The notes under the pieces were generated by a model that made no database searches, was not told where the DNA came from, and was given only the letters and a program-made list of their open reading frames with translations. Made by a program: the position numbers and the translations under genes. Positions 13,887-50,464 of a stretch of DNA of 51,845 bases are shown here, one piece after another (position 1 is the first letter of the stretch; each line of letters starts with the position of its first letter). The DNA is from an uncultured Candidatus Saccharibacteria bacterium (lineage in GTDB: Bacteria; Patescibacteriota; Minisyncoccia; Sungbacterales; HO2-52-23): NCBI GenBank assembly GCA_964361015.1, contig CAYHZE010000001.1, positions 1 to 51,845 of the forward strand. Direction: 5' to 3'.

Positions 13887-13946
13887 ATCCGTATACTACA
13901 TATAAAATTAAAATATATCAAGATTTTTGTATGTAACCCCTCACGC

Positions 13947-14029
13947 TGTCATTGCAATGAGTCGCTGGTGTTGCAATCTCTATCTCGGAATGTGAGATTG
14001 CCGCGTCATTGCTGTTCCTCGCAATGACA
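13947..14029. repeat. Family D core, copy D-a (outer arms degenerate)
   Basis: tgtcattgcaatgag...gcaatctctatctcgg...gagattgc...ctcgcaatgaca is collinear with the core at 49548..49632. Confidence 0.7.
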
Positions 14030-14130
14030 TATCTTTGGCTTAATTTTAAGAGGGTGTGAGCAGTTACTTTTGTATGGGATTGCATATGATGGAGGGAAAC
14101 ATATGATTCCCTTCTTTTGTTATATTATGT

Positions 14131-46281: not shown

Positions 46282-46415
46282 AGAGACCATTACAAAACTC
46301 TTTTTCATCTCCCGTTTGTCATTCCAAGCACTTGCGGGAATCTAGGTTCTCTCCTGAATTTAACGGGTCTGGATTCCCGCTTACGCGGGAATGACAGAGT
46401 TTTGTAATGGTCTCT
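46282..46415. mobile_element. Family D MITE-like element, copy D-b
   Basis: 20-bp TIR agagaccattacaaaactct / agagttttgtaatggtctct enclosing a gtcattcc...gggaatgac double-hairpin core. Confidence 0.85.
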
Positions 46416-46478
46416 AAGTACATCTCATAAACGAAGCGTCCCCAGTTACCATTCTATTTGAAATATGGTTCTATATAT

Positions 46479-48161
46479 ATGGAGTTTGGTGAAATTCAGA
46501 AGAAGATAAGCGACTTATATCAGGACACCCGCGTATCGGTGGCCGAATATATATCTCTTGCACATGCGCTTGGTGATGGGTCAGCAGGCAATGTTCCTTC
46601 GTATATTCGCACCCTTAAGGCGGCTTTTTTGGGCAGTTTTACGATTCAGGGATTGCCGGAAGTATGCAAAGCGCGGGGAATTTTTCATAATTTGCGGATT
46701 GAAATTTATCTGGCGGCGTATAATCAATTCACGCAAGAAGCAATTAATGCGGAAAGCGAACTTGCGCGATTTAATCCTGATATCGTATATGCGGCGGTGG
46801 ATGCGCCGGAAATAATGGACAGGCATCATTTGGAAATCGTGTGCCGTGGACTGTTGGAATACACAAAAGCAAAAATCATTTTTTTTAATTTTGCCTCGAG
46901 TCCGCAGATCAGTCCGGAACGCGCGCGGGAGTTGAACAGGGCGCTTGTGGATTTGGAAAAAAAAGAAGAAAGGATTATAGTTTTTAATTTTGCAAAATTT
47001 TTGCAACGTATTGGTAAAGATGGCCATTGGTATACGAAATACAAACAATTAGGAGATATGCGGTTGGCGCCAAGCGGATTTGCGCCATTGTCTGAAGAAT
47101 TGATCGGGTATGGAGTTGCGCGCGCGGGCAATACAAAAAAATGTTTGGTGCTTGATCTTGATAATACCTTATGGAAAGGTATTATTGGCGAAGATGGTAT
47201 GAGAGGAATTGTGCCGAATCGCAAATTTCAGCGCCATATTCTTGGATTGCATGAAAAGGGCGTCATTCTCGCAATCAACAGTAAAAACAATATGAGAGAC
47301 GCGCAGGAAGTTTTTGAACACCATCCTGACATGGTACTTAAAGAAAATCATATTGCCGCATGGAGGGTAAATTGGCAAGATAAGGATCGTAATATGGCGG
47401 AGATCGCGCAGGATTTGGATTTGGGAACTGACAGTTTTGTGTTTGTTGATGACAGCGGTTTTGAACAAGAGCGGGTGAAAACGGCGTTTCCCGAAATAGC
47501 GGTTTTGTCGCCGGATGCGCTCGCGGATTTTCGGGGATTTTTTTCGTTTAAGGTGACAAAGGAAGATATGCGCAGAGGGGCAATGTATGTGGAGGAGCGC
47601 AAGAGAAAAGAATTGCGGACTTCCCTGCCGAGTGAAGATGAGTTTCTCTCTACACTCGGATTGTCGCTTATCATACGTCATGCGTTAGAAAGTGATGTTG
47701 CGCGTGTAAGCCAACTTACGCAAAAGACTAATCAATTCAATCTCACCACTCGGCGGTATACGGAGGATGAAATTCGTTCGCGCATACAAGACAATGCGTG
47801 GAATATACGGGTTGCCGAAGCCAAAGATCGTTTCGGCGATTATGGCGCTATTGGGATTGCGATTATAGAGCACGGCCGCGATGCGTGGCGCATTGATAAT
47901 TTTTTATTGAGCTGCAGGATTCTTGGCAGAAAGGTGGAGAAAGTATTTTTGCATGCTCTTTTGGACAGCGCGTGCCAACAAGGCATTGAACGTGTAATCG
48001 GTGAATTTATTCCTTCGGCGAAAAATAAACTATGTGAATCGTTTCTTGAAGATAACAAATTCGTATTTGAATCTTGTGAAGAAAAAAAGTTTATCTATCA
48101 TTGGACTTCCGAAAATAAATCATACACGTACCCTCATTTCATCAAGCTTACTCTTGCATAA
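46479..48161 (+). CDS. FkbH-like HAD-IIIC phosphatase / ACP-loading enzyme
   Basis: CLVLDLDNTLWKGIIGEDG (DxDxT HAD motif), INSKN, VFVDDS, GNAT-like C-terminal tail; the ORF track starts at TTG 46458. Confidence 0.8.
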   Translation: MEFGEIQKKISDLYQDTRVSVAEYISLAHALGDGSAGNVPSYIRTLKAAFLGSFTIQGLPEVCKARGIFHNLRIEIYLAAYNQFTQEAINAESELARFNPDIVYAAVDAPEIMDRHHLEIVCRGLLEYTKAKIIFFNFASSPQISPERARELNRALVDLEKKEERIIVFNFAKFLQRIGKDGHWYTKYKQLGDMRLAPSGFAPLSEELIGYGVARAGNTKKCLVLDLDNTLWKGIIGEDGMRGIVPNRKFQRHILGLHEKGVILAINSKNNMRDAQEVFEHHPDMVLKENHIAAWRVNWQDKDRNMAEIAQDLDLGTDSFVFVDDSGFEQERVKTAFPEIAVLSPDALADFRGFFSFKVTKEDMRRGAMYVEERKRKELRTSLPSEDEFLSTLGLSLIIRHALESDVARVSQLTQKTNQFNLTTRRYTEDEIRSRIQDNAWNIRVAEAKDRFGDYGAIGIAIIEHGRDAWRIDNFLLSCRILGRKVEKVFLHALLDSACQQGIERVIGEFIPSAKNKLCESFLEDNKFVFESCEEKKFIYHWTSENKSYTYPHFIKLTLA

Positions 48162-48163
48162 CT

Positions 48164-48397
48164 ATGAAAACAGTTGAAGAAGTAATTGCTCATGTCCTTC
48201 ACATTGATCCTTCCGGTATCACTGACGCGAGCAGTCCGAACGACATAGAGAACTGGGATTCGTTTAACGGACTTCTTTTGGTTACTGAACTTGAAAAGAC
48301 ATTTAACGTATCTTTTAGTCTTGATGAGATCGTGGTGGTAAAAAATGTCGGCGATATTAAATCAGCTTTGAAAAAACATGGCATCAAAATCCCCTAA
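48164..48397 (+). CDS. Acyl carrier protein
   Basis: 77 aa; NWDSFNGLLLVTELE contains the DS(L/F) phosphopantetheine attachment motif. Confidence 0.8.
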   Translation: MKTVEEVIAHVLHIDPSGITDASSPNDIENWDSFNGLLLVTELEKTFNVSFSLDEIVVVKNVGDIKSALKKHGIKIP

Positions 48398-48821
48398 TCT
48401 TCCGCTTCATTCTTTTTCGTTCAAAGATATTCAGATAGGGGATACCTATTCTTTTGAGCGTTTTATTGATGATGAATTGGTCAAATCTTTTGCAGACATG
48501 AGCGGTGATTACAATCCGCTTCATATGGACGAGATATATGCGGCCCGTACCCAATTTGGCGGGCGCGTAGCTCATGGTATGCTTTCAGCAAGTTTTTTTT
48601 CAGCGCTTGTCGGCATGTTGTGTCCCGGTTCTCACTGTCTTTATCTTTCGCAAGACGTGCGCTTTAAGAAGCCGATCTTTCTTAATACGCGAGTGGTAGT
48701 CAAAGGAACGGTTACTGAAAAATCGGATGCAGTCAACATAATTTTTTTGCGGACCCTCGTATTGGATAAAGACGGTGTTGTTGTGGTTGAAGGCGAGGCA
48801 AAGGTAACCGTAATGACATAG
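48378..48821 (+). CDS. MaoC-like (R)-specific hydratase/dehydratase (hot-dog fold)
   Basis: SGDYNPLHMDEIYAARTQFGGRVAHGML. Confidence 0.8.
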   Translation: MASKSPNLPLHSFSFKDIQIGDTYSFERFIDDELVKSFADMSGDYNPLHMDEIYAARTQFGGRVAHGMLSASFFSALVGMLCPGSHCLYLSQDVRFKKPIFLNTRVVVKGTVTEKSDAVNIIFLRTLVLDKDGVVVVEGEAKVTVMT

Positions 48822-48825
48822 GAAT

Positions 48826-49524
48826 ATGAATAGATTTGACAAAAAAGTTATTTTAATACTCGGAGGCACCGGTGCAATCGGATCTTCTATTGCCGACCAT
48901 CTTGAACAAGAGGGCGGTATTGCCATTCGGCATGGAAGAAGTGGAGCATACGCATGGGATATTGAGAAAGGGGAAGATGCGGGCGTGTTTGTGGAAAAAA
49001 TAATCAAAGATTTTGGAAAAATAGACGGGGTGGTAAATTCACTTTCTTGCCCCATACGGATCGGCAATTTTGAAAAGAAAAGTTGGCAGGATTTTCTAGG
49101 GCATCTCAATGTGCAGTTGAAGGCCGCAGTTGAAATCGAAGGGAGTGTTATTGTTCATATGAAAAAACAGGGAAAGGGAAAGATCGTGCATGTGATAACC
49201 TCATACGCGATTGCCCTACCTCCTCCGGGCATTTCCGAATATATAACGGCAAAGTACGCGATGTGGGGGTTGACCAAGGCATTGGCAAGAGAGCTGGGGC
49301 GTCATCATATTACCGTCAATGCGGTATCGCCCGGGTTTATAAAAAATAAATTCAGTTCCATTGCTCCCGAAAAACTCATTGATATCATCACTGCCGAAAC
49401 TCCGCTTGGGCGCTTGACTACCGAAAAAGATGTGGCGCATGCGGTATTATTTCTTCTATCTGAAGACGCGGATCATATCACAGGAGAAAATATAAACATT
49501 TCCGGGGGGCAGACGATGGAATAA
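48826..49524 (+). CDS. Short-chain dehydrogenase/reductase (FabG-like)
   Basis: VILILGGTGAIGSSIA; YITAKYAMWGLTKALA (YxxxK); NAVSPGFI. Confidence 0.8.
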   Translation: MNRFDKKVILILGGTGAIGSSIADHLEQEGGIAIRHGRSGAYAWDIEKGEDAGVFVEKIIKDFGKIDGVVNSLSCPIRIGNFEKKSWQDFLGHLNVQLKAAVEIEGSVIVHMKKQGKGKIVHVITSYAIALPPPGISEYITAKYAMWGLTKALARELGRHHITVNAVSPGFIKNKFSSIAPEKLIDIITAETPLGRLTTEKDVAHAVLFLLSEDADHITGENINISGGQTME

Positions 49525-49527
49525 TAT

Positions 49528-49658
49528 GAGACTGTAGAAGAATGCCCAGAAGTTGTCATTGCGAGGAGCAGTAGTGACGAAGCAATCTCTCTCTCGGCGT
49601 TATAGATTGCTTCGCTACGCTCGCAATGACACCGTGGGAGATATTCTTCTACAGTCTC
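49528..49658. mobile_element. Family D MITE-like element, copy D-c
   Basis: TIR gagactgtagaagaat / attcttctacagtctc; core gtcattgcgagg...gcaatctctctctcgg...agattgcttcg...ctcgcaatgac; flanked by AATAT on both sides. Confidence 0.88.
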
Positions 49659-49665
49659 AATATGA

Positions 49666-49830
49666 GGACTTACGCATTTAGTTTTAGTTTTAGTTCCTCC
49701 CCTAGAATAGGGGAGGGTAGGAGGGGTATGTGTGTGGGGGATATCAATTTTTTCTTTAGGTTTTGCCCTCACCTTCTATCACCCCTAACCTCGCTCCTAT
49801 TTTATGAAGAGAAAAAGAAGTCAAGCGCAT
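49666..49830 (+). repeat. Family A palindromic element, copy A7 (right half degenerate)
   Basis: ggacttacgcat + hairpin1 + long stem; hairpin2 and the right terminus are eroded; starts 8 bp after D-c. Confidence 0.8.
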
Positions 49831-49843
49831 AAATTCTATATAT

Positions 49844-50308
49844 ATGCCAAGCATAAAAATAAAAATTTTAAAAAGAACCACGCTGAAAATTCTGCATCAA
49901 GTCAATCATCTCCTCTCGCAGTTAAGTTTAACCGCCACTGCTCCCGCTCCGCTCACCCCTAGACAATTCAAGTCCCTTCTCGGCCAACCGCGGGTATTTT
50001 TTTTAACCGCCATGTCTTCCATGGATGCGGAGGCGGTTATGATTGGTTTTCTCGCCATCTATTTAGTAAGAATTCCAAGCGGACTTTTAGCTGTGGTAGA
50101 AGATTTAATTGTTGATGAACCGTACCGCAAGCGGGGGGTGGGACGGCTTTTAATGGAATACGCGATTGACTTGGCGGAGAAAAAAGGCGCGCGCCATATA
50201 AGTCTCCGCACAAATCCTCAACGAATCGCAGCGAATAAGCTTTATGAACAAATGGGGTTTCGTCTCATGACGACAAATTTTTTTCGGATCAATTTGCCGA
50301 GGAAATAA
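49844..50308 (+). CDS. GNAT-family N-acetyltransferase
   Basis: VDEPYRKRGVGRLLMEYAIDLAEKKGARHISL...ANKLYEQMGF (motif A Q/RxxGxG/A). Confidence 0.85.
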   Translation: MPSIKIKILKRTTLKILHQVNHLLSQLSLTATAPAPLTPRQFKSLLGQPRVFFLTAMSSMDAEAVMIGFLAIYLVRIPSGLLAVVEDLIVDEPYRKRGVGRLLMEYAIDLAEKKGARHISLRTNPQRIAANKLYEQMGFRLMTTNFFRINLPRK

Positions 50309-50311
50309 ATT

Positions 50312-50443
50312 AGGACCGTAGAAAAATATCTCCCATGATGTCATTGCGAAGCGTTGCGCAAGTAATCTATAGCCTTAAGATAGAGATTGCTTCGTCGGAA
50401 GCCTTCTCGCAATGACAGTGTTCGGGTATTGTTCTACGGTCTC
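50312..50443. mobile_element. Family D MITE-like element, copy D-d
   Basis: TIR aggaccgtagaaaaata / ggtattgttctacggtctc; core gtcattgcgaag...agattgcttcg...ctcgcaatgac; flanked by AAATT on both sides. Confidence 0.85.
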
Positions 50444-50464
50444 AAATTATAATTTTTTTCATTC

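Follow-up and report, generated by a model that had tools for sequence, protein, structure and literature searches.

Elements of the locus

The window analysed here is the complete 51 845-nt contig CAYHZE010000001.1 (C1) of a metagenome-assembled genome (MAG; GCA_964361015.1; 1.14 Mb, 146 contigs, 44% G+C) of an ultra-small groundwater bacterium, and further assemblies of the same population derive from Hainich groundwater samples. Towards its right end lie three short palindromic elements, D-b, D-c and D-d (Table 1), which a preliminary description of the bare sequence had joined into one family, D, of transposing miniature inverted-repeat transposable elements (MITEs). We find that D-c and D-d belong to a recently mobile MITE family that duplicates 5-6 bp of its target and was probably moved by a transposase acting in trans, that D-b belongs to a different family with an IS5-family parent, and that the conspicuous hairpins in the centre of all three are exchangeable cargo. 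In the following, C-numbers denote contigs of the studied MAG (G000), G-numbers genomes and L-numbers extracted loci.

Re-reading the sequence reproduced the coordinates, the inverted ends and the AATAT and AAATT flanks that had been given for D-c and D-d. The perfect 20-bp inverted repeat reported for D-b (46282-46415) was likewise recovered, with TAA on both sides if the ends are taken as GAGACC/GGTCTC (46283-46414). Each of the three elements is predicted to fold into a single rod-like hairpin (z -7.8 to -10.7 vs shuffles), and none of the D elements has a match in Rfam. The window had been described as free of transposases; indeed, none of the transposase families that we searched for matches this contig.

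Table 1. Coordinates of D-b, D-c, D-d and their parts in the window
Feature	Position	Remarks
D-b, 132-bp MITE of a different, IS5-derived family, end GAGACCATTACAAAACTC	46283..46414	sole copy in the MAG
D-b, left 3-bp target-site duplication TAA	46280..46282	
D-b, right 3-bp target-site duplication TAA	46415..46417	
D-b core, two GTCATTCC...GGGAAT units in inverted arrangement	46318..46395	right unit conforms to the Ssn-related motif as published
D-c, 131-bp MITE of the GAGACYGTAGAA shell family	49528..49658	closest copy C89:492-622, 97.7% identical
D-c, left target-site duplication AATAT	49523..49527	overlaps AA of the TAA stop of the SDR gene
D-c, right target-site duplication AATAT	49659..49663	
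D-c core (cargo), two GTCATTGCGAG...GCAATCT hairpin units in inverted arrangement	49555..49630	
D-d, 132-bp MITE of the GAGACYGTAGAA shell family	50312..50443	orientation opposite to D-c; left end mutated to AGGACC in place of GAGACC
D-d, left target-site duplication AAATT	50307..50311	overlaps AA of the TAA stop of the GNAT gene
D-d, right target-site duplication AAATT	50444..50448	
D-d core, two hairpin units of the GTCATTGCGA type in inverted arrangement	50340..50416	

Target-site duplications and target preference of D-c and D-d

Searching the MAG with BLAST and with the end sequence yielded 32 paired copies of the D-c/D-d family with sizes from 102 to 318 bp. The end of the family comprises 16 bp, GAGACYGTAGAAAAAT, conserved to at least 90% over an alignment of 29 MAG copies and also across genomes. 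Of the 32 copies, 25 are flanked by a perfect direct duplication of at least 5 bp (5 bp, n = 21; 6 bp, n = 4). This is far beyond chance: when the flanks were re-paired 20 000 times, duplications numbered 2.6 on average and never exceeded 10, a shifted-window control gave 0, and an inverted rather than direct match of the flanks was seen in only 2 copies.

The insertion sites themselves are strongly constrained. T stands just before and A just after the element in all 32 copies. The duplication has A and T at its outermost positions in 29 of the 32, and one base further out T is found in 20 and A in 21; the target therefore reads T/ANNNT/A. In other genomes, 11 of 19 evaluable copies carry a 5-bp duplication, and since these include AACGC, AATAC and TTCTT, the ends of the element are fixed at GAGAC/GTCTC. 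All 32 copies of the MAG are located between called open reading frames (ORFs). In five of them, D-c and D-d included, the insertion separates precisely the T of a TAA stop codon from its AA, and the stop is re-formed by the duplication.

As checks, the preliminary description had proposed to look for a recurrence of the duplicated pentamers in other copies and for empty sites. Duplications do recur, both within the MAG and in other genomes, and a single copy of the target was found at three paralogous sites. D-c and D-d show several features that characterize bacterial MITEs: they are short, non-coding and multicopy, with terminal inverted repeats and a duplication of fixed length that is present as a single copy at empty sites.

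Empty sites, age and state in the population

For the empty-site search the two flanks of each copy were joined and matched against the MAG. The first such site (C12:15931-16051) contains one AAACTT and is 95% identical to the flanks of the filled site C8:19986-20116. The second (C30:4880-5001) contains one AAGGT and is an uninterrupted paralogue of the element that hosts the nested copy C2:12627-12783. In the third case a family-A element hosts the copy C51:6512-6641 in its central loop; some 100 intact family-A copies span this point, and the empty counterpart, the family-A copy C104:1187-1308, has one AATAT. The first site stems from a similarity between the end of contig C8 (C8:19932-20323) and the stretch upstream of rpsM (C12:15797-16051), which share 93-95% identity; the C8 end represents either a paralogue or a second strain within the bin.

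Two pairs of copies show 100% identity, C2:12627 and C25:7517 over 157 bp and C101:3207 and C47:7409 over 130 bp, the members of each pair occupying different sites with different duplications; several further pairs of D-c/D-d copies are 99% identical. Identical copies at different sites mean that the movement was recent. Together, duplications, empty sites and identical copies provide direct sequence proof that short palindromes have been mobile recently in a reduced genome of the candidate phyla radiation (CPR).

Within the population, D-b, D-c and D-d have reached fixation. They are present, with 99.7-100% identity, in nine other independent assemblies of the population wherever these span the loci, and no orthologous empty site was found among the nine. 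Several contigs of the population assemblies break inside D-b, D-c or D-d. The same is seen for contigs C127, C129, C66, C53 and C54 and for the Logan contigs L057-L060, which end 24-85 bp inside D elements. Because contigs break within them, the copy number of the D elements is probably under-counted.

D-b and its IS5-family parent

Grouping D-b, D-c and D-d as one family holds for D-c and D-d only; D-b has a different end, a 3-bp duplication and an IS5-family parent. Its end, GAGACCATTACAAAACTC, is unique within the MAG but common in sister genera (up to 18 end matches per genome), where the copies of the D-b family measure 160-166 bp. Counting the TAA of D-b, a perfect 3-bp duplication is found in 11 of 21 copies of this family. 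In G013, a genome of a sister genus, D-b-type ends bound an 895-bp element (L222:498-1392) with two ORFs, which match DUF4096 (PF13340; 4.5e-23) and DDE_Tnp_1_2 (PF13586; 4e-9). The NCBIfam model NF033580 of the IS5 family matches both ORFs as well (1.8e-25 and 2.3e-19), covering positions 1-114 and 174-256. Because the same ends bound this IS5-family element, D-b is a MITE derived from such an element. The parent is of the IS1031 type (~0.9 kb, GAG ends, 3-bp duplication in ISfinder), and D-b resembles the IS5 family (IS1031/IS427-like) and its MITEs in that its ends begin with GAG, its duplication is 3 bp long and its parent has two ORFs.

The D-b-family MITEs of the relatives have no GTCATT (Ssn-type) core, which argues that the core of D-b is a local replacement of the interior. 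Within this family (L213-L232, from G453, G450, G013 and others) we also observed a segment of 16-20 bp that is wholly different between copies and exactly mirrored in the other arm; this looks like copying from arm to arm rather than stepwise compensatory change.

Shells and hairpin cargo

The interior of the 29 aligned D-c/D-d copies is variable and is swapped outright in three of them, the cores being of the GTCATTGCGA, GTCGAAGG or GTCATYCTGA type. Altogether, the D-c/D-d shell holds at least four unrelated core types in the MAG and others elsewhere. The same cores are found inside at least three shells with differing duplications (3, 5-6 and 8 bp), plus further shell types. The double-hairpin cores are of the GTCATTGCGAG / GTCATTCCCGC type, as had been noted; the MAG contains 82 heads of GTCATTGCGAG (~2 expected) and 46 of GTCATTCCCGC (~0.3 expected). 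The cores are interchangeable cargo. The earlier reading of the duplications as evidence that the palindromes transpose stands for the outer shells but not for the cores, which are swappable between shells. 'Family D' is polyphyletic, with at least three transposon lineages sharing Ssn-type hairpin cargo. A classification of such repeats based on the conspicuous hairpin core misleads; ends and duplication length define the lineages.

The third of these shells (S4) is represented in the window by D-a (13933-14067; ends GTAACCCCTCAC...GTGAGGGGTTAC), which is flanked by the 8-bp duplication TTTTGTAT at 13925-13932 and 14068-14075. Including D-a, 22 pairs of the GTAACCCCTCAC shell are present in the MAG (e.g. 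C8:11601-11767 and C57:1713-1855), and in roughly half of these the 8-bp duplication is perfect; GTAA ends together with a duplication of this length are reminiscent of the IS66 family. For a fourth shell (S2, end CTTTGAATTACGAAAC), a duplication of ~7 bp is seen by eye in three of six copies. As a separate observation, a 60-bp mini-element at C2:15264-15323 combines one D-c-type end (GAGACTGTAGAA) with one D-b/IS5-type end (GAGACGGTTATAAAA) and shows no clear duplication.

Two D copies lie in the central loop of other palindromic elements. One might speculate that pairs of Ssn-type hairpins have repeatedly been captured in the centre of unrelated miniature transposons (the IS5-like D-b, the D-c/D-d shell and the GTAA-ended shell with 8-bp duplication), with the loops of extruded hairpins as preferred landing sites and, bolder still, that a non-classical enzyme moves the D-c/D-d shell. 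We hold this to be rather unlikely. If true, loop-targeted capture would build layered, 'Russian-doll' palindromes, and a non-classical enzyme would account for the fact that none is seen beside a recently active family.

Ssn-related hairpins and small GIY-YIG genes

In the published NTS-ssnA-NTS arrangement, NTS or Ssn-related motifs flank the gene ssnA (Chenal et al. 2025, PMC11893778). The degenerate Ssn motif of that study has 47 matches in the MAG vs 2 after shuffling; its strict form fits the right unit of the D-b core, but not the GTCATTGCGAG units of D-c/D-d. The D cores resemble the published motifs in being inverted hairpin units of the HGTCWY... type and differ from them in that the pair contains no gene and is framed by the ends of a transposon.

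The MAG encodes three small GIY-YIG genes. One of them (C10:16535-16984, L183; 100 aa) is framed by GTCATTCCCGC units in an NTS-ssnA-NTS arrangement. The left outer flank of this gene begins with ATACCATCTC, resembling another local MITE shell. Small single-domain GIY-YIG genes are flanked on both sides by GTCATTGCGAG units in G041 (L191, L195) and G044 (L197), and in G044 GIY-YIG genes are also flanked by CCTGAGC...GTCGAAGG and GTCATCCTGAGG units. Such genes are present in all five D-bearing genomes tested, and the best PDB match of the proteins is the UPF0213 protein 1zg2 (E = 1e-3). The D end bounds none of the 19 small GIY-YIG genes examined. By its sequence, the D core would be a gene-less pair of Ssn-related hairpins of the type that flanks small Ssn-like GIY-YIG genes. 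This ties the published hairpins to the interiors of MITEs, a link that we did not find described in the literature searched.

Distribution of the ends in other genomes

Among 40 genomes from the family and order of the MAG, matches to D-c are confined to its central part (about positions 24-107) and never include the ends. A 12-mer of the end occurs 26+26 times in the MAG and at background level (≤4) elsewhere among 400 genomes of the phylum, and the sole paired element outside the MAG in this set is in G283. Paired ends were found in about a dozen CPR MAGs, including Uhrbacteria, Kerfeldbacteria and Parcubacteria, when one genome per species was scanned; the copies outside the studied MAG again have 5-bp duplications and their interiors are quite different.

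The same 12-mer end is shared by palindromes of ~135-180 bp in Shewanella, Pseudoalteromonas and Smithellaceae (L028, L032, L020, L247-L251). These always have AAC at the left and AACGCC... at the right, and one right flank enters an integron attC-like sequence. We had considered these proteobacterial elements as relatives and rejected them, because their flanks differ (AAC...AACGCC, attC-like) and they offer no parent; they probably constitute a different, site-specific family. Searching the literature by sequence string returned coincidences with primers only.

Mobilization of D-c and D-d

Taken together, we consider it likely that D-c and D-d are copies of a non-autonomous transposon bounded by inverted repeats, i.e. 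a MITE, mobilized in trans by a transposase that was not found. The 16-bp end bounds a non-coding interior of ~100 bp, insertion duplicates 5, occasionally 6, bp of a T/ANNNT/A target, and in this lineage the family has moved very recently. A transposase acting in trans would bind the 16-bp ends and make 5-bp staggered cuts. Since the D-c/D-d end begins with GAG and is identical to the D-b end at 11 of 16 positions, the enzyme would most likely be of the DDE type and related to the IS5 family. Its gene may either be missing from the MAG, residing on orphan contigs of ~0.9 kb, or have been lost. The central double hairpin is cargo and not a transposition signal, and D-b works likewise, as a separate family.

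Several observations weigh against this reading, most of them from the search for the parent, for which 12 D-bearing genomes were used. An insertion sequence (IS) with matching inverted repeats, as the preliminary description had suggested, was not found in the MAG for the D-c/D-d ends: long-spaced ends revealed no element >320 bp bounded by them. Nor was there a parent in five other D-bearing genomes, where each solo end proved to be a MITE with a decayed partner. A 15-mer scan of viral contigs gave only chance single ends, and a metagenome scan of the 260-320-bp range gave one D-shell element, which is gene-less. Profile searches with DDE_Tnp_1, IS1595, Tn3, DDE_5, DUF4096 and DDE_Tnp_1_2, and in G000 also with rve and DDE_Tnp_4, returned nothing bearing D ends. 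G041 and G042, the next richest in D elements, have no matches to the former six profiles, and G000 has no transposase of the searched families except for one IS5-family element with another end. The transposases found in six more D-bearing genomes have no D ends either. To our knowledge, a duplication of 5-6 bp also fits no IS5 subgroup described in ISfinder (2-4, 8 or 9 bp). Finally, 30 of 30 IS5-type loci from protein look-ups carry GAGAYGGTTACAAAAC-type ends, so that the parent of D-c/D-d should lie outside that IS5 clade.

The single IS5-family element of G000 (C28:~131-1050, L011) is intact, with a transposase of 272 aa, the end GAGCATGTCCGGAAAC and a TA duplication, and adjoins a tRNA gene. 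A 10-bp direct repeat, AATCTTATAT, is located 3-6 nt outside its inverted ends.

How much the missing parent means depends on where such elements assemble. For the first ORF of the G013 element (ORF-A) we found 333 relatives in metagenomes, mostly on contigs of 0.7-1.5 kb, and the complete copies recovered measure 890-910 bp, roughly the length of their contigs. Because complete IS of ~0.9 kb assemble as orphan contigs, such parents fall out of bins, and since IS5-type elements sit mostly on orphan contigs, their absence from MAGs is weak evidence. This offers a practical reason why MAGs appear to be free of transposases.

A different explanation would be that a small Ssn-like GIY-YIG nuclease recognizes the shared hairpin core and moves the elements, the outer inverted repeats being passengers. 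Most D-shell copies of the MAG do contain an Ssn-type hairpin pair, and the three small GIY-YIG genes of the MAG, the GTCATTCCCGC-framed one on C10 among them, the occurrence of such genes in all five D-bearing genomes tested and the failure to find a cognate transposase would be in line with it. However, the same cores occupy at least three shells, each with its own conserved end and duplication length (3, 5-6 or 8 bp), and the D shell is constant across genomes although its core changes. Moreover, the D end frames none of the 19 small GIY-YIG genes, the only D-shell element of 260-320 bp in the metagenome scan is gene-less, and the D-b shell has a proven IS5-family (DDE) parent and relatives whose copies do without the Ssn-type core. 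We therefore judge this explanation unlikely. It is retained because the recent activity of a family for which no transposase is visible lacks an explanation.

The family could also be a fossil whose mobilizing gene was lost from the lineage, leaving inert copies that were possibly kept as hairpins at gene ends. The lack of a parent, the 99.7-100% identity of D-b, D-c and D-d in nine independent assemblies of the population and the position of all 32 copies between called ORFs are compatible with such a scenario, but copies located at separate sites are 100% identical in two pairs and 99% identical in several, which suggests too recent a movement for a long-lost enzyme and makes the scenario improbable to a similar degree as the nuclease. 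Very improbable, lastly, is a reading with TG...CA as the true ends (TGAGAC...GTCTCA), a 3-4-bp duplication of the IS3 or retroviral type and the outer A/T as a target preference: T precedes and A follows 32 of 32 MAG copies, a 3-bp duplication fits the MAG equally well and the empty sites are compatible with both readings, but the copies in other genomes that duplicate AACGC, AATAC and TTCTT have C or T, not T...A, as adjoining bases, and there is no rve-type integrase in the MAG.

Relation to known miniature elements

MITEs are a well-known kind of element. Correia elements (CREE/NEMIS) of Neisseria are non-coding, ~100-160 bp long and intergenic in many copies, with 26-bp ends and a TA duplication; they coexist with dRS3/NTS hairpin repeats and the Ssn nuclease, and we know of no cognate transposase in their host. 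The D elements, too, are short, non-coding and intergenic, with inverted ends, a short duplication and a cognate transposase that was not found. Unlike in Correia elements, the end of D-c/D-d measures 16 bp and the duplication 5-6 bp at T/ANNNT/A, and the Ssn-type hairpins lie inside the MITE instead of beside it. With the IS5 family D-c/D-d share an end beginning with GAG, but they duplicate 5-6 bp and their parent was not found. Tn3-derived inverted-repeat miniature elements (TIMEs) are non-autonomous, with ~38-bp ends beginning with GGGG and a 5-bp duplication in AT-rich targets. D-c/D-d are similar in being non-autonomous, in their 5-bp duplication and in preferring AT-rich targets; they differ in their ends, which begin with GAGAC and are conserved over only 16 bp, and no Tn3 transposase was found in the five genomes searched. 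New here are the duplication statistics combined with empty sites, the splitting of family D, the IS5-family parent of D-b, and an orphan, recently active family that duplicates 5 bp.

Further observations

The TA flanks that had been pointed out for copies of family B are uninformative as duplications: because TA is its own reverse complement, they could just lengthen the inverted repeat. A link between the GAGAC/GTCTC ends and type IIS restriction was considered and rejected, as the genome shows no avoidance of the word (observed/expected 0.97). Pentamers that are strongly avoided in G000 include CTCAG (0.17), GCAGC (0.34) and CCAGG (0.51), which suggests restriction-modification pressure.

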